Both the position numbers and the translations under genes were made by a program. Positions 19,639 to 37,843 of a stretch of DNA of 64,000 nt are shown here, piece by piece (within the stretch, counting starts at the first letter, position 1; the number at the start of each line of letters is the position of its first letter). The DNA is from an uncultured Dehalococcoidia bacterium. Lineage in GTDB: Bacteria > Chloroflexota > Dehalococcoidia > Dehalococcoidales > UBA1222. The notes under the pieces were generated by a model that saw only the letters and a list, made by a program, of their open reading frames with translations, had not been told where the DNA came from and did not search any database. The stretch lies in the NCBI GenBank assembly GCA_903844845.1, contig CAIMVG010000021.1, positions 70,992 to 134,991 on the forward strand, in the 5' to 3' direction.

Positions 19639-22059
19639 TTATCTGCCTCCCGCGTTGGCATCATAGTTGCCGCCGGTTTGTTGTGCGGCGCCTGACTGCG
19701 CCTGCATCTGCTGCATCTGTTCCTTCGTATAGGTAGCCGTTTTCCCGCCGGCTTCGGTGGTCGTGACCGACCCGTCTCTATGCAGGTCTATCCTGTTGCC
19801 TTGTTTATCTTGAACGTAACCGGAGCCATCGCTTTTGGTCTTCATCGTGGTGCCTTTCGAGTCCGTGATATCGGAGTTGCCCTGGGCGTCCCAAGAGCCT
19901 GCCCCGTCGGGGCCTTTCATCTCGCCTGAGCCGTCGCTCTTTATATCCTGGGTATTCCCCTTGTCGTCTTTGATGTGCATGTTCCCCTTGTCGTCAGTGG
20001 TCAGATCTAACGTTCCCTGTTCATCCTTGACGTGTGCATCGGTAACATTCCCGCCTTTTATATCGACCGAATTACCCTTTTCATCCTTGATATGCGCCTC
20101 GTTGCCGTCCTGGCTGATATCGGCGGTATTGCCCTTGTCGTCCTTGATGTGCATGGTGCCCTTATCGTCGGTGTTGAGGTCGACCGTTCCCTTGTCATCC
20201 TTGATATGTGCGCTGGTCACGTTGCCGTCCGAGTTGATATCGGCGGTATTGCCCTTGTCGTCCTTGATATGAATGTTGTCGGCATCGTCAGTGTTGACGT
20301 CCATCGTGCCGCCGTCTTCAGTTTTGATATGGCCGTTCATCTTGCCGTCGGCATCGGCATTGATGAAAGAGCCGTCATGGAACTTGGCCCTCAGTCCGTT
20401 CTCGTCGACCGTGATCTTATCGCCATCAGGAGTTTCGCCTTCGAAAGAGCCATCCTCCTTGATGGTTATTTTATTGCCCTGTTCGTCGGTCATGGAACCG
20501 CTCATATTCCCGTCTTTGTCGATTTTCATCGTGCCGCCGGGAGTGGAGATGCTGGCGGAACCATCCTTGTTCATCGTCATTACGGTACCGTCATATGTGG
20601 TTAAAGACCCTTCAGGGTAGCCCTCCTTCGGGCAATGCAGTGTACCGCCATATGGTGATTTTACGTCGATGCTGCCATCCTTATTGAGGGTGGATCCGCC
20701 TGTCCGGCCGTCCGGCAAGGTTATCTCTATTTCGCCGCTAGGTTTTGTGACCTGCAGCCCTGTTTCGGGGCTCCACTCTTTTTTCGTACCGTCGGGGTAA
20801 GACGTGTAACTACTGCCGTCGGGCCCCTCCGAATAGGTGGTGCCGTCGGGATAAATCGTGGTAACCACTTTGTCAGGAGTCCGGTTGATGATCGTCCCGT
20901 CCGGTTGCATCGTGTTGGTCGAGCCGTCCGGCAGGCGCTGGGATTGGAACTTGCCGTCAGCATCGTAGGTGCTTACGGTACCGTTCGGCTGGCGCACCGT
21001 GAGGGTTTTATCCGGGTTCGTTTCGACGGTGGTTCCGGGAGGGTCATCGGGGTTTGTCGAAGGCACCGGACCCTGCGGTACAGGGGGTTCTTCAGGCACA
21101 TCAGGCGGTTCTTCGGGGGGCGGCCCTATTTCGCCGGTCGCGATATCCTCTCCCGCACCTTCGGGTATTTCCGACTCGTCCCCGCCTTCGGCTGACTGCC
21201 CGACGATGACTCCGGCACTTACTCCGGCGACACCGCCCGAAAAGATACCTGCAAAGGTATGGTGAGCACTTTCAAAGTCGAATAGCTGCGACAAGAGAGA
21301 ATGCCCGGAAAATCCCGGGACATTGAGGTGGCTCAAGGCTCCCAAAGCTACCAGGGGAGCCAGAAGGCTCATCGCGCCGGATACCCTTCGGACCGGGGCC
21401 GGTTCAGCTTTGAGAAAGCGCGGCAGGACCCTGGCTACCAGCAGCAGGGCCAGCCCTATCCAGGCAAAATAATATCCCACGCCGAAGAAAGCTTTCAGGA
21501 TGTGCACCCCGGGCCTTTCGGTCAGGTAGCCCGTGATGGTCGGGGAAAAGGTGTAAAGAAGCAATCCTGAAAGGGCCAGCAGCCAGTGGTCTATCTTCTC
21601 GAGGTTCATGCTGCCCCAGTACATGAGTATGATGCTGATGAAAACGATGAAAACAAAACCCGGGAAAATATCGCCTGAGGGGCGGGAGAACAGATTTTTA
21701 GGTATGGCGAATACGATGCTTATGTATTTCGGAATCGTATTAGGCGTATGGCCGCTGGGAAGCGTCATGTAGTCGGCTATCGGTAAAAGGAAAGCTAAAG
21801 AGAAAAAGAGTTTGGCCACTACGGGGCATAGATCGTTAACCAGGTCCTGCCAGGGTTTGAGGTGGAAAGGCAGGCGGTTGAATAGTTTCAACACTACGAA
21901 CCCGGCCAGAGTGGCCACTAAAAGGCCGACGATGCCGCTGAGGAAATAGCCGACGATCAAGCCGGCGAGGATGGAGAGCAAGACAGGGAAACCTTCTTTG
22001 GTGAATAGCCATCTGGTGCGGGCTGCAAGTGACTGTTTGACGCCTGCATCTTTTTTCAT
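19639..22059 (-). CDS. Large membrane-anchored repeat protein (N-terminal multi-TM domain, Pro-rich linker, PDG/DDKGN repeat ectodomain)
   Basis: 806 aa. About 290 aa of hydrophobic helices, then the linker GPPPEEPPDVPEEPPVPQGPVP, then many short ..PDG(T/S).. beta-like repeats. Six or more HIKDDKGN(T/S).D units follow. Confidence 0.75.
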   Translation of the reverse strand: MKKDAGVKQSLAARTRWLFTKEGFPVLLSILAGLIVGYFLSGIVGLLVATLAGFVVLKLFNRLPFHLKPWQDLVNDLCPVVAKLFFSLAFLLPIADYMTLPSGHTPNTIPKYISIVFAIPKNLFSRPSGDIFPGFVFIVFISIILMYWGSMNLEKIDHWLLALSGLLLYTFSPTITGYLTERPGVHILKAFFGVGYYFAWIGLALLLVARVLPRFLKAEPAPVRRVSGAMSLLAPLVALGALSHLNVPGFSGHSLLSQLFDFESAHHTFAGIFSGGVAGVSAGVIVGQSAEGGDESEIPEGAGEDIATGEIGPPPEEPPDVPEEPPVPQGPVPSTNPDDPPGTTVETNPDKTLTVRQPNGTVSTYDADGKFQSQRLPDGSTNTMQPDGTIINRTPDKVVTTIYPDGTTYSEGPDGSSYTSYPDGTKKEWSPETGLQVTKPSGEIEITLPDGRTGGSTLNKDGSIDVKSPYGGTLHCPKEGYPEGSLTTYDGTVMTMNKDGSASISTPGGTMKIDKDGNMSGSMTDEQGNKITIKEDGSFEGETPDGDKITVDENGLRAKFHDGSFINADADGKMNGHIKTEDGGTMDVNTDDADNIHIKDDKGNTADINSDGNVTSAHIKDDKGTVDLNTDDKGTMHIKDDKGNTADISQDGNEAHIKDEKGNSVDIKGGNVTDAHVKDEQGTLDLTTDDKGNMHIKDDKGNTQDIKSDGSGEMKGPDGAGSWDAQGNSDITDSKGTTMKTKSDGSGYVQDKQGNRIDLHRDGSVTTTEAGGKTATYTKEQMQQMQAQSGAAQQTGGNYDANAGGR
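19930..20290 (-). repeat. Intragenic tandem repeats encoding HIKDDKGNTADI.(S/Q)DGN...-type units (about 19-21 codons each)
   Basis: Repeated DNA strings GCCCTTGTCGTCCTTGATGTGCAT / ATTGCCCTTGTCGTCCTTGATATG recur across this interval. The protein shows at least 6 consecutive units. Confidence 0.8.
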
Positions 22060-24966: not shown

Positions 24967-25064
24967 ATATTAATTTCCTTTTAACGAATTTAATACTGAG
25001 CAAATGAAAAATTGCTTTGCTTTCGCGGTATCGAGGGCAATTGAAAATATTCGGTGATAATAAG

Positions 25065-26651
25065 TTAAATGCTGAGTCTTATGTTTTTTAATTCTTCATA
25101 TTGTCTGAAACATTTTTCCATCTCTTCGGCAGGAACATTTAAATTCTCGATGAACCAATTGTCCACGGTTTTCATAGCTAGAGCTCTTTGGTCTTTCAGA
25201 ATTAGGTCGTCGACTCTTGATTCAATGCCGTAAGGAAAAACAAAATTTTCGCCTAAAAAGACTAATGCTTTCTTTGCCGCAGACGGTTCTATCTTTAGCA
25301 CCCCACTTCCGTATGTCTTAGAATATATTTCAAAAGAAAGTTGGGACAATGAGCTGAGCATTGAGAACCGTATCCACCGTAAACTGAGGTCAATATTTTC
25401 AGTGTTCTTTAGATAAACTCCATGGACGTTATTTGTGCTATATATTTTGTCCGGATTCAAAACGATGGTCGGAGTTTCTTTAATCATATAAGGGAGAAAT
25501 GCATCGGGTGATTTCTTTGGTGCAATGCAATACCAAACATTTCTATTTTTACAATGAAGCCTTTTGGCATATCCTTCAACTACGCCTCGTTGTATGTATT
25601 TAGTGAGAGATTCAGAAAGTGGAATATTTTCTGGTATCTCTAAAATATAATCTTGTATGTTAATGGCAGAAATATCTTTGCATTTATACATATCCCGGGC
25701 TTTTCGGACGATTGGTTTAATGAAAGAATCCGGTATCCCCAATTCGGTGGCTTGTATTTTGTTAATAATGAAGAAATTATTTGCGCCAGTTACGGTGCCG
25801 ATTAAAACGTCCGTACATTTACCTAATGGCTGGAATTTGAGGAGATTTCTGAGTTTCTCCAAGCTCTTTGATTCTTTTCTAAATACCTGGAGATTTTCAA
25901 TTGTTGAATTTCCAACTGGAATGGTGCGCCACTTGACATCTCTGTCGGGAATCCCGCGTGAATTGCCGATTTGTATTTTATGAGACCGCGTTCCATATTG
26001 GTCTGCAAAGAGAAGGAGGATTCTTTCTTGGTTTGTATCAAACAATTGTTGTCCTATAACCGCAATTCTTATCTCTCCAAAATTCGCAAAAAGATATTCT
26101 TTGACGGGCCGAGAATATTCTGAATATAAGAACGACCATGGCAGAATTGCACCAAGACTGCCGTTTATCCTGATGTATTTAAGAGAATGTAATATAAAAT
26201 ATGCCCATAAATCACAGGTTTTTCTCACACATGTGGTGCTACTAACGAGCGTGTTTAAATATTTCTTTGTCTCTTTGGTTAATGAATGATGTCGAATATA
26301 TGGCGGATTCATAATGATTGCATCAAATTGGCTTGGTAGGTTGCAGTTCTTCAGATAAAAAAAATCTGTATTAGTTAAATTCCCAATCTCAACGGTTCGG
26401 TTGAGTAAATCCATAATTTTCTTTGGAGGTAGGTTGACGTCACATCCGAAAAGTTGCGTACTCGGATTCGGAGTTCCCAGTGATTCGAAGCGCTTGTGTG
26501 CGGCAAATAACAAGGCTCCATGCCCAAAACAGGGGTCAAATACCGTCGCATGCTCGTTTTTAATAGTATTGTATACCAGGTAGTCAGCTAAGGCTTCAGG
26601 TGTGAAATGAATTCCATCCTTTTTACGAGGGAGAGATTCAGACGTGGTCAT
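25065..26651 (-). CDS. N6-adenine DNA methyltransferase (gamma class, Eco57I/TaqI-like catalytic domain plus C-terminal target-recognition region)
   Basis: Motif I VFDPCFGHGALL, motif IV IIMNPPYIRHH, and a C-terminal GSGVLKIEPS-type segment. Start taken at the ATG at 26651 (MTTSESL), which forms a TAATG overlap with the upstream stop. An alternative start is at 26681. Confidence 0.85.
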   Translation of the reverse strand: MTTSESLPRKKDGIHFTPEALADYLVYNTIKNEHATVFDPCFGHGALLFAAHKRFESLGTPNPSTQLFGCDVNLPPKKIMDLLNRTVEIGNLTNTDFFYLKNCNLPSQFDAIIMNPPYIRHHSLTKETKKYLNTLVSSTTCVRKTCDLWAYFILHSLKYIRINGSLGAILPWSFLYSEYSRPVKEYLFANFGEIRIAVIGQQLFDTNQERILLLFADQYGTRSHKIQIGNSRGIPDRDVKWRTIPVGNSTIENLQVFRKESKSLEKLRNLLKFQPLGKCTDVLIGTVTGANNFFIINKIQATELGIPDSFIKPIVRKARDMYKCKDISAINIQDYILEIPENIPLSESLTKYIQRGVVEGYAKRLHCKNRNVWYCIAPKKSPDAFLPYMIKETPTIVLNPDKIYSTNNVHGVYLKNTENIDLSLRWIRFSMLSSLSQLSFEIYSKTYGSGVLKIEPSAAKKALVFLGENFVFPYGIESRVDDLILKDQRALAMKTVDNWFIENLNVPAEEMEKCFRQYEELKNIRLSI

Positions 26652-27430
26652 TATTGATATGCAATCTCGTGCAGACAGCACTTATCTTTTGCCATCACAG
26701 CATTAACCAAACTTACATAATTCACCCACCAAACTTTTTGGCTTTTGGACACCAAATTGTTCCAAGATCGCTCTTCAACCATGTCATTTAGCGGTGTATC
26801 AAATTCTCTTAAAGCCAAATCCAAAACTAATAAATAATCCATAGGAAAATATTGGATCCGCGGGTTTTCTAGAAATGGCTCAAGGCAATAATGCGAATTC
26901 ATGCCATTAGGTATGGAATTTGGAGGATTCCCACCGTATTGAAGATGGGAAGGGGGTATTTTTTGGTTGCCCGGTTGGAGATCAAAATGGAATTTTCTAA
27001 CAATCCTCTTTCCGGTTTTTTGTGAAACTCGGCAGCAAGAATCTCCGGGAGTAATAAGCCCCTCTGTTTGGAACGTGACCCAAAACGCGAACGAAGACCG
27101 AGTTATAGATTTCTTATCGCCTGTGATTACGCCTCCAATAATAATTGTGGGGTGATGTTGATTTAGCTTTTTGTTCAATACGGGAATTTCGATTAGTGGA
27201 ATATTGCAATGGAAATTGTTGCCTGTTTCTGACTTCAATTTAGCATAGGCTACGGCAATAGAAGCAGCAGGGCTCCCGGTGATTGTAGCGTATCGTTCTT
27301 CATTGATACTTCGAAACTCAGCAGAGCATTGTAAGTAATTTAGAGATTCCAACAGTTGGGTTTGGGCTTCATCACGATCCACTTCGCATGTCTCAGTTTT
27401 GTTGGTCAGTTTATTAGTTAAATCTGGCAT
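26651..27430 (-). CDS. Orphan 259-aa protein (candidate effector or specificity component of the island operon)
   Basis: Uninterrupted ORF, AT-rich like its neighbours, coupled on both sides. I recognise no family motif. Confidence 0.65.
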   Translation of the reverse strand: MPDLTNKLTNKTETCEVDRDEAQTQLLESLNYLQCSAEFRSINEERYATITGSPAASIAVAYAKLKSETGNNFHCNIPLIEIPVLNKKLNQHHPTIIIGGVITGDKKSITRSSFAFWVTFQTEGLITPGDSCCRVSQKTGKRIVRKFHFDLQPGNQKIPPSHLQYGGNPPNSIPNGMNSHYCLEPFLENPRIQYFPMDYLLVLDLALREFDTPLNDMVEERSWNNLVSKSQKVWWVNYVSLVNAVMAKDKCCLHEIAYQ

Positions 27431-27438
27431 ATTCGAGC

Positions 27439-28473
27439 CTAATTTTTTCTGAACGACCTAAATCCGTCAAAGTAGAGGTATCGTTGTTTCGAAATATCAG
27501 GTTGACTGCATCTTATGTGGACCGGAGATTCCTTTTTGTTATCGAGGTCCATCCCGACGGTCTCCGGGAATGGCTCGGAACAGACCGCACACCTACTGCG
27601 TTGTTCCGCTTGGATATCGAATATTTTGTTGGAAATGGACCAAGGTTCATCTGAATCCACGTCAGCGGCTCCAGGTTCCGAAAACAGTAATTGAGTTACT
27701 TCATTGACCCACCATAAAGATTTATGAGTACCATTAAAAACACCCGAATATTTGGCTTTGCTAAATATTTCGGCGATTTTTTCGAAACCCACCTCATTAA
27801 CACCCAATAAAGTTGAGATTCGCAAACTGTCCGAGAGAATGCCTGGCACAACCATCAATTGTCTTCGGACCCATCGAGAAAATGAAATTGTATTCCCCTC
27901 GCCTTCAGAGTCGGTGTCGGGAGTTAACCCATTTCTTAAATTATCTGGTAAAGTTAAAGATATTAACTTTTCACAAGAGTCTGGTACGCGCAACAAATCA
28001 ATTAAAGCTTTCACGTCACCTCTCGGGGTGTCGGCTCTTATTGTTTTGTAATCCAATGCATCGTAATAAAGGGATTGTTCATTTTTTTGGTATCTCTGCA
28101 GTTCTTTAACAGTTAAAATTCTATCAAATACACTTTCGGTTGCTTGTGACCACTTCGAAAGGTCTGCGTATCCGTTTTTATTTTCTTGGTTTGTCACTAG
28201 ATAAATTGGGTGTTCCGGGAATTTTTCTCTTATTAAAGCCCCTGGAGTGAGCCCGTGATCTTGGAAAAAAACATTTTCGGAATTTGGTTTCTGATTCAGA
28301 TATAAATCAACCAAGAAAATGTCCGGGAGATCCGATCCCTTCATCGTCGTTAGAGATGATTTGAATCGAGTTGGATGTGTCCATACTATTCTCAACAGGT
28401 CTGAGCTTAAATTCTGGGATTCCTCAGTTTGGTCTTGATCATCAATCCAAAAAGCCAGTAATTTGGTGCTCAT
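27439..28473 (-). CDS. REC-like (response-regulator receiver) protein with a possible HTH and a C-terminal Cys/His cluster
   Basis: D11 D12 (FWIDDQD), D56 (FLVDLYL), T94 (YLVTNQ) and K107 (DLSKW) reproduce the spacing of the CheY D12/D13/D57/T87/K109 quintet. LRISTLLGVNEVGFEKIAE is HTH-like. CAVC....(x21)..HIRC lies near the C-terminus. Confidence 0.7.
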   Translation of the reverse strand: MSTKLLAFWIDDQDQTEESQNLSSDLLRIVWTHPTRFKSSLTTMKGSDLPDIFLVDLYLNQKPNSENVFFQDHGLTPGALIREKFPEHPIYLVTNQENKNGYADLSKWSQATESVFDRILTVKELQRYQKNEQSLYYDALDYKTIRADTPRGDVKALIDLLRVPDSCEKLISLTLPDNLRNGLTPDTDSEGEGNTISFSRWVRRQLMVVPGILSDSLRISTLLGVNEVGFEKIAEIFSKAKYSGVFNGTHKSLWWVNEVTQLLFSEPGAADVDSDEPWSISNKIFDIQAEQRSRCAVCSEPFPETVGMDLDNKKESPVHIRCSQPDISKQRYLYFDGFRSFRKN

Positions 28474-30743
28474 GGAAATAATACCTCAATGCATGTTTTC
28501 CAAGGGGTCTCTGGTTTTGTGAATCGTATTGAGCCATTATAGGATTCCACAGTTGTTTTAACTATGTTAAGGCCTATTCCGCTACCCCTACCGAGCGCAG
28601 CAAGGGAATCGTTTGCGACCCTCCGTTTTAATGAAGAATATAAATTTCCGGCAGGGTCTGCGTTAAGGGGTTTGAAAACTTCCTCCCAGTATTTTTCTTC
28701 CAGCCCAATTCCATCATCGCAAACCGCTAAAACCTTTTTTCCATTTTGCGAGTATACTTTGACATAAATATTACGGCCGTTACCCGAAAGGTTCGCTTTT
28801 ACCGCATTGGAAATCAAGTTCACGATTATGGAATATATTTCCACTTCAAGGATTGGGCCGATTTTAAAATCTTCAGGGATTTCGACGACTGGTTTGTTAA
28901 TTCCATACTCTTCGATCAAATATTGGAACCCCATCATCACTTCATCGACAATTGGTTTTAACAGTATTAGCTGCCTTTTTGTTTCGCCAGATGTTCTACT
29001 CAATGTTCCAAACAATTGAATCTGTTGGTCTAGCCTGTCACGGGTTTTTCGAAGAGATTGTGCAAATAATGAAAAATCGTGCTGATATATTTTGGGTACA
29101 TCGTTCAACATTCTATCTATCGTGTTGGCGTGAGTATCTAATCTGGCCATCAGGTTTTTAATTTCATGAGAAAAATTGAACATCAAAGAACCTGTAGAGG
29201 CGACAGCTTTTAATATCCCAAGGTAAATTTCTGATATTGAATAGGATTGCTTTACGAATTCGCTTGCTGCATTCAATCTAATTTCAGCTTTGCGTCGTTG
29301 TTCTTCAGGTAAAGTTTTAAGAGCTGTTTTAGCTTCATCAGAAATCAATGTTAACGCTTTTAGGGCTATTGGGGTCGTTTCTTCGGTTGGGGAAAAGCTG
29401 AAATTTGTCTTATCACCGAGCAATCCTTCCAATTCCTCGGCTTTTTTATACAATTCTCTTCTTCCTGTGACAAGCAAAAATTCATTGTAATGTAAAACCA
29501 TCCATTGAATAGAAAGTCGAAGAACCGTAACAAGATCTTCGAATGATGAGTCCTCAATAAACCCTTCCCTATCGAGTTTGACCTGCAAGGGCATCGATGG
29601 ACCAGAATTTATCACAACATTCCCGTAAAGTTGTTGGTTTCGCGGGGAATTGAGCATTGCCCTCAGCGGGTCTACCCCCAATTTAGAAGCTATTTCGCTC
29701 AACCTGTCATCTGTTCGCCCTTTGCGCCTCGCGACGTCTGCATCGATGCGTAACCAATCGTTTCCTGCATCTCCATAAGGGTACACTCGGAATCCATCGA
29801 GATAAACTCGAACTCCACCTTGTTCTGTAAGAAGATCCAAGATACCTGTTTTTGTGATAATTCTAGTGTCTCTTAACAGGCTCTTTTGCATTGGAAGCCA
29901 GGCAATTTCAAAGGTTATTCCTTTTAAGTTTTCGAACGCTTCATCCAGTCCAAATTCTTTTAACCCGATTTCCTTTGCTTCGAGCTTCAAATTACAGATG
30001 CCTTGATTATTTATTTCTCCTTCAAGTTTCCCCCAACCTGCGTCTAATAATTGCCTTGATAAAATTCCCTCACCACTGGGAAATTCCGGGGCCTCCAGTT
30101 TTATTTCGAACCCCGGGTCTTCCTCAAAACCTTCTCTTCTCACGCCTTTAACGATGGAAAGTCCTAAAACGTGTCTTCTGAGAAGGTTGAAATCGCTGTC
30201 AGTCCAACGCTCCACAAGGTTGGTCAAAATCAAACTTAACCCAGTTTTCCCGTTTATTAACAAGTCTCGTGTATAGACACATGGTATTTGGGTTAGAGTG
30301 GTGCCCGGTTTGAAATCCCCCCAATTGAAAGTTACCTTTGTCTTTTCTAAACCTCTTTTTTCGGACGTCGTTCCAACTGTCTCCATCACCAGCTTTTTTG
30401 CCAGCCTGCGACAGGCGAATCGCCCTACACCCTTGTTACCGGTTTTACGTCTCCCGTATTTTGGTGATACGGGCGCGCGAACTTTTGAAGTCGTTGCTAT
30501 CCTCATCCAATAGTCACTTACCTCTTGGAAAGACATACCGTGCCCATTGTCTGAGATGTGAATTTCGCCTTGGTTAGGGCCTTTTTTTGCCTTGATAAAC
30601 TTGATGACAATTTCCGTTGCATCAGCGTCATAAGCGTTTTTGATGAGTTCTGCCAACGCAACATAGTTCCTGGTGACCAATCGCTCACCAAGTTCGCCTA
30701 ATAATTGGCTGTCAACGCTAAATGATAATTCAGTCTTAGGCAT
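28470..30743 (-). CDS. Dual Bergerat-fold protein: N-terminal MORC/MutL/Hsp90-like GHKL ATPase plus C-terminal histidine kinase (H-box plus HATPase_c)
   Basis: N-terminal module: ELIKNAYDADA (N box), ISDNGHGMS (G1), GNKGVGRFA (G2). C-terminal module: FSHEIKNLMARL (H box), IVNLISNAVKA (N), CDDGIGL (G1), GRGSGIGLNIV (G2). Start taken at the ATG at 30743 (MPKTEL). The track start at 30812 would add a hydrophobic 23-aa extension. Confidence 0.8.
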   Translation of the reverse strand: MPKTELSFSVDSQLLGELGERLVTRNYVALAELIKNAYDADATEIVIKFIKAKKGPNQGEIHISDNGHGMSFQEVSDYWMRIATTSKVRAPVSPKYGRRKTGNKGVGRFACRRLAKKLVMETVGTTSEKRGLEKTKVTFNWGDFKPGTTLTQIPCVYTRDLLINGKTGLSLILTNLVERWTDSDFNLLRRHVLGLSIVKGVRREGFEEDPGFEIKLEAPEFPSGEGILSRQLLDAGWGKLEGEINNQGICNLKLEAKEIGLKEFGLDEAFENLKGITFEIAWLPMQKSLLRDTRIITKTGILDLLTEQGGVRVYLDGFRVYPYGDAGNDWLRIDADVARRKGRTDDRLSEIASKLGVDPLRAMLNSPRNQQLYGNVVINSGPSMPLQVKLDREGFIEDSSFEDLVTVLRLSIQWMVLHYNEFLLVTGRRELYKKAEELEGLLGDKTNFSFSPTEETTPIALKALTLISDEAKTALKTLPEEQRRKAEIRLNAASEFVKQSYSISEIYLGILKAVASTGSLMFNFSHEIKNLMARLDTHANTIDRMLNDVPKIYQHDFSLFAQSLRKTRDRLDQQIQLFGTLSRTSGETKRQLILLKPIVDEVMMGFQYLIEEYGINKPVVEIPEDFKIGPILEVEIYSIIVNLISNAVKANLSGNGRNIYVKVYSQNGKKVLAVCDDGIGLEEKYWEEVFKPLNADPAGNLYSSLKRRVANDSLAALGRGSGIGLNIVKTTVESYNGSIRFTKPETPWKTCIEVLFP

Positions 30744-31023
30744 GGAAAAAGCTCTCCCAGCAAAGATAACAAGTCTGAGAATGAATATATTCCAAATTGG
30801 GGTTGCTTTCAAGCATGTTGTTTTTAGGGACTAAAATCTAAAAGAAGAATTGGAATAACGATGTTTGATTTTCACAAATCGTACTTTTTGGTACATTATT
30901 AAACATCGCGAGTCTAGCGGTGTAGTTTATTGAATAGAAATTCTGACGGTTAAAGACTTTAGTTGGGTCGCTCAAATGCAGGATTTCGTCTCGTTGTAAA
31001 ATCCTTACAGGAGGGAAATACAA

Positions 31024-34129: not shown

Positions 34130-34510
34130 TCAAGCGTGCGTTAATACCGGGCCTGCGCATTGGGCGATTTTGTCCAGAAGCTCCCTGAGATTGAACGGCT
34201 TGGTGACATAATCGGCGGCGCCCACGTTCTTGGCAAATTGTTTGTTCAGCTGGAAACCCACCGCCGTCAACATGATGATAGGTATCCCGGCAGTCTTCGG
34301 GTTGGATTTCAGGCTGGATGCTACCGCGTAACCGTCCATCTCGGGCATCATGATATCCAGCAGGATGACATCCGTTTTTTGGCGGGCGGCTATGTCCAGC
34401 CCGTCTTTGCCGTTTGACGCTGAAAGCACGTTGTAGCCGTAAGCAGTAGCCATGTCCCGTACGAGTTTGACGGCCATCGGGTCATCATCGATAACAAGCA
34501 GGTTCTTCAC
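34130..34510 (-). CDS. Single-domain response regulator (REC only)
   Basis: LLVIDDDP ... DVILLDIMMPEMDG ... PIIMLTA ... K receiver signature, 126 aa. Confidence 0.9.
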   Translation of the reverse strand: MKNLLVIDDDPMAVKLVRDMATAYGYNVLSASNGKDGLDIAARQKTDVILLDIMMPEMDGYAVASSLKSNPKTAGIPIIMLTAVGFQLNKQFAKNVGAADYVTKPFNLRELLDKIAQCAGPVLTHA

Positions 34511-36791
34511 ATAGTTCTCCTTTTTTTATCGGCAAAGTAAAATAGAAACGGCTGCCTTTGTTTTTTCCGTCGCTCTCCACCCAGATATTTCCTCCGTGAG
34601 TTTCGACGATACGTTTGCTGATTGCCAGTCCCAATCCGGTGCCCGGTGTTTTAGAAATCAGGCCGCTCTGGACTTGATAGAAATCGGTAAAAAGTTTATC
34701 GATGTGTTCGGGAGGAATCCCGATGCCGTTGTCGGCCACGCTGAAAACGAGGGTGTTATCGTCGTTGCGGCCCTGGATATTGATGCTGCCGCCATCCGGC
34801 GTAAATTTCACGGCGTTGGAGAGCAGATTGAACATAACCTGTTTGATCCTGCGCTCGTCTATCGAATATTCACGGGTTTGCAGTTCCGGGGATACCTGAA
34901 CATTAATCTTGATCCCTCGCCTGGCGGTTTTTTCCTTTACCATCAGGAGGCTGCTGTTTATCAGGTTCTGGATGTTTACGGGTGAAAATTGCAGTTCCAC
35001 CTTGCCTGCTTCTATCTTCGCAAGGTCGAGTACGTCATTGATGAGTTCCAGTAAATGCCGCCCGCTGGTCAGGATGTCATCGATATATCCGGATTGCTTT
35101 TCATTGAGAGGGCCGTATAATTTCTGTTCGAGAAGCTGGGAGAACCCCAGGATAGCACTGAGCGGGGTGCGGAGTTCGTGGGACATACTGGCCAGGAAAT
35201 CGCTCTTGGCTTGGTTCGAAGCATTGGCGGCCACCACAGCCTGTTCGAGCTGTTCCGTTCTCTCGGCAACCTTGGCTTCCAATCTCAGGTTAAGCAATTT
35301 GAGGTCCTGGTTCAGTCGTGCCAGGGACTCGGCCGCATTTTGACGCTCCGTGTTATCGATGAGAGTGCTCACGAGTTGTTTTCCGTTGGCATCGTCAGTT
35401 TGAACTATAGTATTCTGGGATGCCCAGAATTTCATGCCGTTATTGCGTTTCCAGATGGTTTCGAAATTTTTGACCACCCCGTCTTGCTCCAACTTCTGAA
35501 ACAGGCGTGTTCTTTCTTCAGGATCGGCATACAGCGACCACGCATAAAGGTCCTGGATCTCATTTTCCCCATGAAAACCGAACATCTCCAGGGCGGTCTT
35601 GTTTGCACTCAGTATCTTGCCGTTGGACAAGGACGTCACTATCCCGATAGGGGCATTTTCCACTAGGTTGCGGAACTTGGCTTCGGATATCCTGAGGGCC
35701 TCTTCGGCATGCTGGCGCTCGATGAGTTCGGTTTCGAGCACTGCTCTCCGGGTAGATTCGGCTTCAGCTTCCTTTTGCCGGGTGATGTCGTGCAGCATCA
35801 CCAGGTACCCGCTGATGCAGTTCCGCGTGACGATGGGAGAGGTGCGGAGTTCATAGCAGCGCTTGTCGGGGTTTCCATCTGGCGAGTGGATAATGATTTC
35901 CCTGGAATCGGCCTCGGCTTGACTCGGTTGTGGTTGGCCCGGCAAAACACGCTCATACGCCTGCCCGATGACGTCACGCGTCCCGCTGCCGAGAATAGCC
36001 CTTGCTACGTAATTGAGTTCAATCACGCGCAGTTCGCTATCCAATACCATCACGCCGTCGGACATGCTTTTAAAAACTACGTCGTAGGCCACCGGCATGA
36101 TATCCAGCAGGTGGAAGCGGGAAAGGCCCCAAAAAAAGGCGGCCCCGGTGATGGTAAAGGCAAATGGCGTCGGATCGATGGCCAGCACCGTGGTGCCGAG
36201 GTAAAAGACGTTGGCCACCCAGGGCACCGCGGTCCCCAGCAGGACGACGACGAGCTGTTTCCGGTAGATGCCTGACGATCGCGTGAACGAGCTGTACAGC
36301 ATGACCGTGCCAGCCAGGATGAGGCCGTAAGAGTAGGCTGTGTGGGCCCAGAACCAGTAACCATGAGTGACGGCGTCAACCGGAGGTGAGACTGATGTGT
36401 TTAGCCAGATGTCCTTCCACATCAGGTGGGTGGTGCCATTCGTCCAGACGTTTATCAGAGTGATTGCCGGGAGGATGCAAAGCAGGATCAGCCTGCCCCG
36501 CGTAAGCCACTTTTCACGCCCTGTGTATTCCAGCGTGAATACAAACCAGAAGACAGGCATGACGGTGATGCCGAAATAAGACAGGTTTATGCAGACTTTC
36601 TTGGCGTCGAGGCTGAGGGCGGAATATTCGGCCAATGCTGCCAGAGACCACCATGCCAGTGAAAGCATTAGAACCAGAAAGGACAGCGCCATAGTTTTTT
36701 TTCTGAATTTCCTCAATCTCAAAGCGAGCAGGGCCGCTCCGCAAAAAGCCGTCAGGGGCAACAGTGTATTGACGTTAATAATGAAGCGCAT
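34485..36791 (-). CDS. Sensor histidine kinase (N-terminal 7TM domain, two PAS-like domains, HisKA, HATPase_c)
   Basis: About 230 aa of seven hydrophobic helices; PAS-like segments; H box FLASMSHELRTPL; N box FNLLSNAVKFT; G boxes DNGIGI and GTGLGLAI. Confidence 0.9.
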   Translation of the reverse strand: MRFIINVNTLLPLTAFCGAALLALRLRKFRKKTMALSFLVLMLSLAWWSLAALAEYSALSLDAKKVCINLSYFGITVMPVFWFVFTLEYTGREKWLTRGRLILLCILPAITLINVWTNGTTHLMWKDIWLNTSVSPPVDAVTHGYWFWAHTAYSYGLILAGTVMLYSSFTRSSGIYRKQLVVVLLGTAVPWVANVFYLGTTVLAIDPTPFAFTITGAAFFWGLSRFHLLDIMPVAYDVVFKSMSDGVMVLDSELRVIELNYVARAILGSGTRDVIGQAYERVLPGQPQPSQAEADSREIIIHSPDGNPDKRCYELRTSPIVTRNCISGYLVMLHDITRQKEAEAESTRRAVLETELIERQHAEEALRISEAKFRNLVENAPIGIVTSLSNGKILSANKTALEMFGFHGENEIQDLYAWSLYADPEERTRLFQKLEQDGVVKNFETIWKRNNGMKFWASQNTIVQTDDANGKQLVSTLIDNTERQNAAESLARLNQDLKLLNLRLEAKVAERTEQLEQAVVAANASNQAKSDFLASMSHELRTPLSAILGFSQLLEQKLYGPLNEKQSGYIDDILTSGRHLLELINDVLDLAKIEAGKVELQFSPVNIQNLINSSLLMVKEKTARRGIKINVQVSPELQTREYSIDERRIKQVMFNLLSNAVKFTPDGGSINIQGRNDDNTLVFSVADNGIGIPPEHIDKLFTDFYQVQSGLISKTPGTGLGLAISKRIVETHGGNIWVESDGKNKGSRFYFTLPIKKGELCEEPACYR

Positions 36792-36793
36792 CT

Positions 36794-37843
36794 CTACCTC
36801 ACGAACGCAAGGACGGCTTCGGCCCCGGCACGGGGTCCTTGTTCTTGTATCACACCGAGAAAAGCTTCAACGATTTTCGGATCGAATTGCGATCCGGAAC
36901 ACCTCATGATTTCGGCGATCGCCTGTTCGCGGGGGGTCCCGGGTCGGTATGGCCGGTCTGAAGTCATGGCGTCAAAACTGTCGGCAACGGCAACTATCCC
37001 CGTCCCTAAAGGCCATCCTTCGCCGGGTGCGGCTTGATTAAGCCCCTTGCCGTCGAAACGGTCGTGATGGTGGGCTATGATTTCGATGACTCTGCGGCTC
37101 GCGACCGGGCGGACGATGCCGGCCCCGACGATGGCGTGGGTCATAACGTGCGTGTATTCATCGGGTGTCAAAGTGTCGGGTTTGTTCTGGACAGCCGGGT
37201 TGACGGCGATTTTCCCCACGTCGTGCAGCAAGGCCCCCCAGCGGAGGTCTTCCAACTGATCTTCGGATATACCTACTTTTTCACCTATCAGGCAAGACAG
37301 TTCGCTGACCCTGCGCGAGTGCCCGCCCGTGTATGCGTCTTTAGCTTCCAGAGCCGAAACCAGCGATTCCACGGAATGCAGGAATGTCTCTCTTATCTTT
37401 TGTTTTTGGTCTTCAACCGTGTGTTCGAGCCCGCAATGGTACAGCCGGATCTTAAGTTCCAGCCGTTTCATTTCGAGGACCTTGTTAACGCTCTGCACGA
37501 CCTGGTCCAGGTCGAAGGGTTTTCCGACATAATCATCGGCGCCGTTTTTCATGCAGTCGATGATGATGCGGGGTTCGGATACCGCTGTGGCCATAATGAT
37601 GCCCGTGTCGGGATATTCGGATTGGATTTCGGGCACCAGCGCCTGCCCCGATTTGCCCGGCATCATCACGTCGAGGATGACGAGTTCGGGCGGGCTTTCC
37701 CTTATCTTGCTCATGGCTTCGAACGCGTCGCCGGCTTCGAGGCAAAAATAGCCTTCGAAGTCCAATCTGTCCTTCAGTATCCTTCGCATGAAAGGTTCGT
37801 CGTCAACGACCAGTATTGTGGTTTCAGGTGCCGATAGACTCAT
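36794..37843 (-). CDS. Response regulator with HD-GYP-type HD domain (GYP motif degenerate)
   Basis: REC: ILVVDDEP...LVILDVMMPG. HD domain: GGHSRRV...LLHDVGKI...HHHDRFDGKGL...VADSFDAMTSDRPYR. The canonical GYP is replaced by GKGL. Confidence 0.85.
   Translation of the reverse strand: MSLSAPETTILVVDDEPFMRRILKDRLDFEGYFCLEAGDAFEAMSKIRESPPELVILDVMMPGKSGQALVPEIQSEYPDTGIIMATAVSEPRIIIDCMKNGADDYVGKPFDLDQVVQSVNKVLEMKRLELKIRLYHCGLEHTVEDQKQKIRETFLHSVESLVSALEAKDAYTGGHSRRVSELSCLIGEKVGISEDQLEDLRWGALLHDVGKIAVNPAVQNKPDTLTPDEYTHVMTHAIVGAGIVRPVASRRVIEIIAHHHDRFDGKGLNQAAPGEGWPLGTGIVAVADSFDAMTSDRPYRPGTPREQAIAEIMRCSGSQFDPKIVEAFLGVIQEQGPRAGAEAVLAFVR

Follow-up and report, generated by a model that had tools for sequence, protein, structure and literature searches.

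A low-GC four-gene cassette with a MORC-like histidine kinase in an uncultured Dehalococcoidia bacterium: a candidate immunity system of the Ambrosia class

What does a compact group of four genes of foreign composition do in the genome of an uncultured Dehalococcoidia bacterium? The question is raised by an AT-rich island within a 64,000-nucleotide (nt) stretch of contig CAIMVG010000021.1 (GenBank assembly GCA_903844845.1, positions 70,992 to 134,991), hereafter the window. The island encodes a soluble sensor histidine kinase with a GHKL ATPase module (gene A), a response regulator (gene B), a candidate effector (gene C) and an N6-adenine DNA methyltransferase (gene D). With a probability of roughly 0.55, we read it as a mobile, self-contained immunity cassette resembling restriction-modification (R-M) systems and belonging to a 'paraMORC-kinase two-component' class, whose validated member is the Ambrosia system. 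The cassette is an undescribed and widespread variant of this known class with one validated member, and not a wholly new system. Its new features are a regulator that joins a receiver (REC) domain to a helix-turn-helix (HTH)-like segment and a zinc knuckle, protein C, the absence of a recognizable nuclease, and a spread over both bacteria and archaea.

The defence reading begins with the kinase. In BLASTP, A aligns with the Ambrosia kinase AbrB at 28% identity over amino acids (aa) 8-331 (expect value E=3e-25; comparisons with AbrA and AbrB used the first 399 aa, from preprint Table S1). The two kinases have the same Pfam architecture, and N36 of A aligns with N40 of AbrB, the Bergerat asparagine that is essential in Ambrosia. 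A role of the cassette in defence is suggested because A matches a validated defence kinase and the equivalent of N40 is conserved. In place of a ligand-binding sensor, the input region of A is a MutL/MORC-type GHKL ATPase. Pfam detects HATPase_c_3 at the N-terminus (4.6e-24) and HATPase_c at the C-terminus (1.7e-22). When a family profile was compared with the PDB, aa 29-90 matched MutL and MORC2, and aa 522-743 matched a DHp and CA core of the HK853 type (E=1e-11). In NCBIfam, the N-terminus best matches the N-terminal part of the BbrUII/HgiDII restriction-enzyme family (1.4e-18), and PADLOC assigns the GHKL module to REase_II (2.2e-10).

The canonical kinase residues are present in A (H526, N646, D676/G678 and G720/G722/G724). 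Across 33-36 homologues, some of them only 23-25% identical, E32, N36, D65, G67, G69, H526, E527, N646, G678, G720, G722 and G724 are invariant or nearly so. Judged by these residues, A contains a histidine-kinase core of class I whose phospho-histidine is predicted to be H526, and both ATP sites of A are intact. More than 1,400 kinase homologues of A were found. An initial annotation of the window, made from the sequence without database searches, had proposed two Bergerat modules in A, one of them a full histidine kinase, and a His-Asp phosphorelay. The Pfam and HK853-like matches agree with the former, and the relay residues and both ATP sites are conserved across the homologues of A and B.

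The four genes, in the order A-B-C-D, are a co-inherited functional unit. Searches based on C retrieved 45 loci, namely L020 by exact protein look-up and L021-L064 by a metagenome scan with a 10-sequence alignment; a scan of a genome collection with a single kinase sequence gave 9 loci. When counts are restricted to the informative cases, in which the contig is long enough, the loci retrieved with C carry B in 37/37, the kinase in 27/27 and an N6-adenine methyltransferase downstream in 31/31. The initial annotation had treated the four genes as one system, and their homologues indeed occur together in other genomes. In 29 of the 31 loci, the methyltransferase gene overlaps C or lies at most 25 nt away. 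Kinase homologues that are 39-67% identical to A always have B and C directly downstream and a D-like methyltransferase adjacent. The methyltransferases associated with the cassette are all Eco57I-type enzymes forming N6-methyladenine (m6A). Their position varies: they lie upstream in divergent orientation in L007/L008 and on a Halomicrobium plasmid; L009 has the gene upstream, and in L010 it is convergent. The set is retained despite altered gene order in L007, L009, L010 and L065, and the survival of the association through rearrangement suggests that the methyltransferase is functionally linked to A-B-C.

A few loci carry restriction genes. In two of Desulfobacteria type (L011 9742-12255 and L024 9251-11764), an XhoI-type pair replaces the D-type methyltransferase about 500 nt downstream of C and consists of an M.XhoI-like protein of 590 aa and R.XhoI (Pfam XhoI 1e-106). 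In two others (L009 7211-7945 and L010 12159-12911), the D-like methyltransferases have neighbours of about 245 aa that are homologous to each other (E=3e-8) and share a PD-(D/E)xK-like motif, 'VDV...(S/D)xK'. These neighbours are likely cognate restriction enzymes, which most cassettes lack. C is retained even in the loci that bear a restriction endonuclease, so it goes with A and B and cannot be just the restriction partner of the methyltransferase.

In distant kinase subfamilies, the slot after the receiver is filled by an HNH protein (L019), by a metallo-beta-lactamase protein (L015, L017 and L018), or by an uncharacterised protein together with Vsr (L014). The HNH protein of L019, beside one distant kinase, is the only AbrD-like one seen. 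The arrangement (mad2-like N6 methylase)-kinase-receiver-metallo-beta-lactamase found in L015 (1419-5240), L017 (6773-11690) and L018 (6773-11692) is apparently undescribed. The kinases of these three loci are distant relatives of A (23-25% identity), and their metallo-beta-lactamase protein resembles the RTasMBL/LmuA-type models of PADLOC. An Omnitrophota locus (L013 6214-11243) and an Iainarchaeum locus (L014 6691-11565) combine a C5-methylase, Vsr, kinase and receiver, as in the class described by Bellieny-Rabelo et al.; the Iainarchaeum locus indicates that this class reaches archaea too.

The cassette is a mobile one, with defence or mobile genes as frequent neighbours. Its hosts include Desulfobacteria, Dehalococcoidia/Chloroflexota, Thiodiazotropha, Methanoperedens, Hodarchaeota, a complete Bathyarchaeia chromosome and a Halomicrobium plasmid. 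Among the sampled loci from which the association with defence and mobile genes is drawn, L004 adjoins two GmrSD genes and a Type ISP enzyme, L009 adjoins SIR2 and IS110, and L035 adjoins a PLD-SNF2 helicase and a second methylase. Phage integrases lie near L062 and L063 and a reverse transcriptase near L022, and insertion sequence (IS) elements are also among the neighbours. B and C are strongly divergent in sequence across cassettes. On the Bathyarchaeia chromosome (CP166960.1; L007/L008 3257-4645), a few kilobases (kb) separate the cassette from genes for phage capsid and cement proteins, which makes a location in or beside a provirus possible. The plasmid pLC1Hm-01 of Halomicrobium sp. LC1Hm carries an intact copy (L065). 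There, an intact open reading frame (ORF) of the C family encoding 269 aa (L065 10559-11368; NZ_CP044130.1, 107558-108367) overlaps the stop of a 'response regulator' gene. The PLSDB gene table lacks this frame, which is possibly unannotated in the record.

In the window, the cassette apparently was acquired horizontally, as its anomalies in GC content and in GC at third codon positions (GC3) suggest. The GC fraction of the island is 0.402, compared with 0.554 in the remaining window and 0.542 and 0.531 in the 5-kb flanks. This value lies about 7 standard deviations (sd) under the mean of 91 island-sized windows elsewhere (mean 0.559, sd 0.021, minimum 0.493). The island is the sole low-GC region of the window, every other 2-kb stretch having a GC fraction of at least 0.46. 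GC3 is 0.37-0.40 in the four cassette genes versus 0.67-0.73 in the eamA, MscS-like and cation-efflux genes. A sharp drop in composition had been noticed in the initial annotation and is borne out by these values, but the flanks, then put at about 60% GC, are at about 53-55%. A search of the island boundaries for direct or inverted repeats and att-like sites found none, and no integrase or tRNA was found beside the island.

The island holds exactly four minus-strand ORFs (Table 1), and independent gene calls on an identical metagenome contig gave the same proteins of 757, 344, 259 and 528 aa. The start of B overlaps the end of A by ATGA (28470-28473), a gap of 8 nt separates B from C (27431-27438), and C and D overlap by TAATG (26649-26653). 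The non-coding sequence amounts to two gaps of 98 nt and 280 nt, leaving no space for a fifth gene such as XRE. The genes and their coupled junctions are thus as first annotated. The same annotation had seen no restriction endonuclease, helicase, integrase or transposase, and scans of the four proteins with Pfam, PADLOC and NCBIfam gave no match to nuclease, helicase, integrase or transposase families.

Table 1. Features of the cassette and its putative promoter, in window coordinates
Feature	Positions	Strand	Description
Island	24967..31023	.	Low-GC cassette between eamA and VOC/3-dmu-9_3-mt gene
Gene A	28470..30743	-	757-aa soluble sensor histidine kinase, AbrB homologue; MutL/MORC-type GHKL, conserved middle domain, DHp, CA
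A, N-terminal Bergerat ATPase module	30366..30662	-	HATPase_c_3, aa 28-126; presumed sensor or clamp
A, kinase core	28476..29168	-	H-box H526 (codon 29166-29168) through CA domain (HATPase_c, aa 634-756)
Gene B	27439..28473	-	344-aa response regulator; predicted REC aa 1-131 with acceptor D56, HTH-like segment ~aa 195-238, C-terminal zinc knuckle C295/C298/H319/C322
Gene C	26651..27430	-	259-aa candidate effector, always after B; without fold match; conserved polar core
Gene D	25065..26651	-	528-aa gamma-class N6-adenine DNA methyltransferase, Eco57I type, M_Eco57I_C target-recognition domain
Putative operon promoter	30784..30812	-	TTGAAA-17 nt-TATATT; top sigma-70-like match in the region, 10/12 positions

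Two neighbouring features of the window may be recorded here. On the minus strand, 19639-22059 encodes a protein of 806 aa with a membrane-like N-terminal region and a long, highly repetitive C-terminus rich in Asp, Lys and Gly, with repeats like 'HIKDDKGNxxDI'. An orthodox two-component cluster lies 3 kb off the island (about 34130-37843) and comprises a REC-HD protein, a kinase with seven transmembrane segments (7TM-PAS-HisKA) and a single-domain receiver. It has the normal GC of the host and appears unrelated to the cassette.

The receiver assignment of B is based on fold comparison, since comparisons of B with CheY or AbrC by sequence are not significant or marginal. B alone gave no match in Pfam, PADLOC, NCBIfam or the PDB sequences. 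Its AlphaFold2 (AF2) model has (beta-alpha)5 topology over the REC region, and a Foldseek search of the PDB gave 109 matches with E<=1e-3, the best 50 of which are all receiver-domain proteins. In the B family, W9, D11, D12, D56, C295, C298 and H319 are invariant and T94 and C322 nearly so; the beta5 lysine K123 is kept in a close subgroup only. Pfam Response_reg matches 8/24 family members, weakly, and the Prokaryotic Genome Annotation Pipeline (PGAP) labels the Halomicrobium orthologue 'response regulator'. The HTH-like motif (consensus ATxLGxNExGFxKV) lies within a helical region downstream of REC. As modelled, B combines a true receiver with an HTH-like segment and a zinc knuckle, and the REC-like protein of the initial annotation is upheld by the predicted topology and the Foldseek matches. 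The canonical two-component residues are therefore present on both sides, as the H-box and the N, G1 and G2 boxes of the kinase and as D11, D12, D56 and T94 of the receiver.

D is well placed among known enzymes. It matches Pfam N6_Mtase (9e-15), Eco57I (6e-14) and M_Eco57I_C (1e-9), and DPCFGHG at aa 39-45 precedes NPPY at aa 115-118, an order that marks the gamma class. The PADLOC model MTase_II (PDLC03267) covers its full length (8e-68), and its nearest solved relatives are M.BseCI and CamA. The Pfam matches and the motif order agree with its first assignment as a gamma-class N6-adenine methyltransferase.

C was initially labelled an orphan, which is true of its annotation but not of its family, since homologues of C fall into at least 939 clusters at 50% identity (E<=1e-3). 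The best 150 of these clusters are all stand-alone proteins of 138-279 aa. A pattern-limited scan of IMG/VR found no viral carriage of C. The conserved core consists of R145, H148, F149, D150, P159, H162, Q164, G167, P190, R191, P196, F210 and W223. The AF2 model of C has a predicted local distance difference test score (pLDDT) of 78 and a predicted template modelling score (pTM) of 0.79. Foldseek found no match for the model (best E 0.3 in PDB and 0.05 in BFVD, weak NTF2-like noise), and sequence and profile searches of the PDB with 1, 10 and 62 sequences found nothing. Scans of each family member with Pfam, PADLOC and NCBIfam gave scattered single chance matches only (DUF2290, PDC-M22A and REase_II), and hhalign found no match between C and the small proteins of L009 and L014. 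Assignments of C as an iron/2-oxoglutarate (Fe/2OG) dioxygenase, an SRA/PUA-like reader, a Vsr-like protein or a PD-(D/E)xK enzyme were rejected for misfits in strand count, motif spacing and fold matches. A reading of H148...H162 as a His-Me-finger-like beta-beta-alpha element is speculative. The invariant polar residues R145, H148, D150, H162, Q164 and R191 suggest an active site.

A CTTGAAA-N17-TATATTCA element, which contains the putative promoter of the window copy, recurs upstream of the kinase gene in the bacterial loci L004, L012, L021, L022, L028 and L041. This near-consensus element is kept in copies from hosts that differ in GC, which suggests that the cassette brings its own promoter along. 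The spacer of the element holds a partly conserved AATTAGAT-like stretch, which could be an operator. Since the promoter-like element falls within a longer, TTG-initiated ORF, A probably starts at the ATG at 30743.

These parts suggest how the cassette might work. D would mark the host genome, and the GHKL clamp of A would serve as a sensor that binds and samples DNA or an infection-specific cue. On meeting foreign, unmarked DNA, A would autophosphorylate at H526, and the phosphoryl group would move to D56 of B. The HTH and zinc module of phosphorylated B would then bind DNA, and B would license C. C, the sole part to which no role has been assigned, fills the slot held elsewhere by HNH or metallo-beta-lactamase proteins and would attack the invader. 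We favour licensing at the protein level, or steric repression, over activation of RNA polymerase because of the near-consensus promoter and the occurrence in both bacteria and archaea; this is an argument rather than a test. It is possible, though we propose it tentatively, that C is the founding member of an effector family with a new fold, for example a nuclease built around R145/H148/D150/H162/Q164/R191 on a beta-hairpin, which phospho-B switches on directly while the MORC-like clamp senses non-self DNA. If this were true, a host-independent His-Asp phosphorelay would gate DNA restriction in bacteria and archaea.

Several observations weigh against the immunity cassette as we read it. A nuclease fold could not be assigned to any part of the cassette, nor an enzymatic fold to C, so restriction is not demonstrated, and the AF2 model of C was built on a shallow alignment of 10 sequences. 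The genes adjoining the island in the window are housekeeping genes and form no defence island. A complete type II R-M pair lies beside the trio in a minority of loci (L009, L010, L011 and L024). For Ambrosia itself, the authors favour transcriptional control and found that methylation by AbrA does not protect phage DNA (bioRxiv 10.1101/2025.09.30.679545). This last point leads to the main rival, an inducible, modification-dependent system of Ambrosia style (type IV-like or abortive), in which A and B would govern D and C at the level of transcription or activity, methylation would occur only on infection, and C would attack methylated phage or self DNA, with no self-protecting mark. It has in its favour that it is the working model for a homologous system, in which infection raises reporter expression (bioRxiv 10.1101/2025.09.30.679545), that B has an HTH-like DNA-binding segment, and that C always stands beside an m6A methyltransferase, whichever subfamily is considered. 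However, four coupled genes behind one near-consensus sigma-70 promoter make activator-dependent or differential induction not obvious, and the M.XhoI-like enzyme of L011 and L024 is paired with R.XhoI and must be constitutively active. In addition, C is unlike AbrD or known methyl-directed nucleases, and an occurrence in bacteria and archaea speaks against reliance on contacts with host RNA polymerase. On balance, we consider this rival rather unlikely.

The absence of a recognizable nuclease and the housekeeping flanks of the window copy also fit a mobile epigenetic regulator without a role in defence, namely an orphan m6A methyltransferase that a two-component pair controls and that C, itself non-catalytic, would assist in DNA binding or specificity. 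The resemblance of D to stand-alone type II and orphan methyltransferases and the look of B as a DNA-binding regulator point the same way. We find this improbable, however, given a kinase whose homologue serves a validated defence system, the HNH, metallo-beta-lactamase or Vsr genes that fill the same slot in related subfamilies, and the invariant polar residues of C that suggest an active site. The rapid horizontal spread, the strong divergence of B and C and the frequent defence or mobile neighbours also argue against it. The trio could instead be an accessory sensor and regulator of neighbouring classical type II R-M systems, of which the window copy would be a decaying remnant that has lost its restriction gene. 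The XhoI-type pairs that the trio abuts in L011 and L024, the PD-(D/E)xK-like partners of D-like methyltransferases in L009 and L010, and the regulatory role over R-M proposed by Bellieny-Rabelo et al. (PMC8011034) speak for such a module. Yet most loci have no recognizable partner restriction gene and place the methyltransferase directly after C (29/31), and where the flanks are annotated (window, L004 and L006), the next gene past the methyltransferase is unrelated to restriction. The window genes, moreover, are intact, tightly coupled and identical in several independent assemblies. An accessory module is thus the least probable of these explanations, and a very improbable one.

That immune systems can use two-component signalling is a recent insight, owed to Detocs and Ambrosia. 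Learning the role of C and the cue of the GHKL module would address how a phosphorelay can tell self from non-self DNA, and whether methylation acts as a shield or a trigger. It would also address how prokaryotic MORC-type ATPases, the ancestors of the eukaryotic chromatin MORCs, read the state of DNA. The intact copy in the cultured Halomicrobium sp. LC1Hm makes the question experimentally accessible.

How, then, does the cassette compare with known systems? The initial annotation could match it to no named defence system, and in PADLOC, Pfam and NCBIfam scans the four proteins give only the generic MTase_II and REase_II (GHKL) matches, so that no system named in PADLOC fits. The analogy then drawn with Pgl (BREX type 2) fails, since PADLOC finds neither PglZ nor PglW in A-C; the NCBIfam BREX-1 PglX model covers only aa 106-206 of D, with 27 bits against a cut-off of 500. 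Membership in MADS was rejected as well, because the mad2 model alone matches D (2e-14 versus 8e-68 for MTase_II) and no mad model matches A-C; the NCBIfam MAD2 model gives D 14.9 bits against a cut-off of 720. A classical type II R-M system was set aside, as no restriction endonuclease family was detected in the window cassette. Detocs reportedly achieves immunity via a His-Asp phosphorelay, as proposed for the cassette, and is said to consist of a TPR sensor kinase (DtcA), a buffer receiver (DtcB) and a receiver-PNP effector (DtcC), with no methyltransferase. In contrast, the cassette has a single receiver gene, no PNP domain and no TPR sensor kinase, and is not a Detocs system. PADLOC 2.0.0, in which the presence of Detocs models is unconfirmed, gave no Detocs match for A or B, only REase_II on the GHKL module.

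Closer relatives are found among proteins with GHKL modules. The paraMORC and GHKL restriction proteins (Iyer et al. 2008; BbrUII/HgiDII; GHKL-Shedu VcSduA) share the MutL/MORC-type module, and GHKL clamps control nucleases in Shedu type I-D. In A the module is joined not to a nuclease but to a histidine-kinase core, which argues that the output of A is a phosphorelay and not direct cleavage. Bellieny-Rabelo et al. 2021 (PMC8011034) described soluble kinases with HATPase_c_3, HEF_HK (DHp) and HATPase_c that are paired with divergent Response_reg_2 receivers. Such pairs are enriched beside genes of type II R-M systems, chiefly those for C5 methylases, Vsr and HNH, and a paraMORC descent and a regulatory role over R-M systems were proposed for them (PMC8011034). 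The cassette shares with them the soluble kinase with HATPase_c_3, H-E box and HATPase_c, the adjacent gene for a divergent receiver, and the R-M context. It differs in that PF19191 and PF19192 were not detected in A, B, six distant kinases or AbrC at E<=0.1, and in that its family is tied to Eco57I-type m6A methylases, whereas the HEF_HK class is linked mostly to C5 methylases and Vsr. The description of that class gives its receivers REC domains only and does not include the C family.

Ambrosia of Pseudomonas aeruginosa is encoded as AbrR-AbrA-AbrB-AbrC-AbrD, that is, an XRE regulator, N6-adenine methylase, HATPase kinase, REC protein and HNH protein (bioRxiv 10.1101/2025.09.30.679545). Its anti-phage activity has been validated, with every gene needed as well as AbrB N40 and AbrC D60 (van den Berg et al. 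2025, bioRxiv 10.1101/2025.09.30.679545). The initial annotation had put the cassette forward as a candidate undescribed system; novelty in kind is not supported, since Ambrosia, to whose AbrB A is homologous, and the kinase-receiver pairs of PMC8011034 both precede it. The two systems share, in a single cluster, an N6-adenine methyltransferase, a soluble HATPase_c_3 and HATPase_c kinase of about 750 aa, a receiver and one more small protein. D and AbrA belong to the same enzyme class, but the catalytic core alone aligns (24% identity, E=1e-5) and D bears an M_Eco57I_C domain. B has no pairwise similarity to AbrC, and hhalign gives a marginal match (E=0.0056) over the alpha3-beta4 block only; B is 344 aa long, with an HTH-like segment, a zinc knuckle and a distinct C-terminal half, compared with 209 aa for AbrC. 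The cassette lacks a gene for an XRE/HipB-like regulator (AbrR), C is not similar to AbrD, and none of the four cassette proteins has an HNH family match. The gene order also differs. Ambrosia was reported in Gammaproteobacteria only (bioRxiv 10.1101/2025.09.30.679545), whereas the cassette family spans many bacterial phyla and archaea. The cassette is thus much more widespread than Ambrosia, and it keeps the MORC-like kinase but has another receiver, another effector and another methyltransferase subtype.

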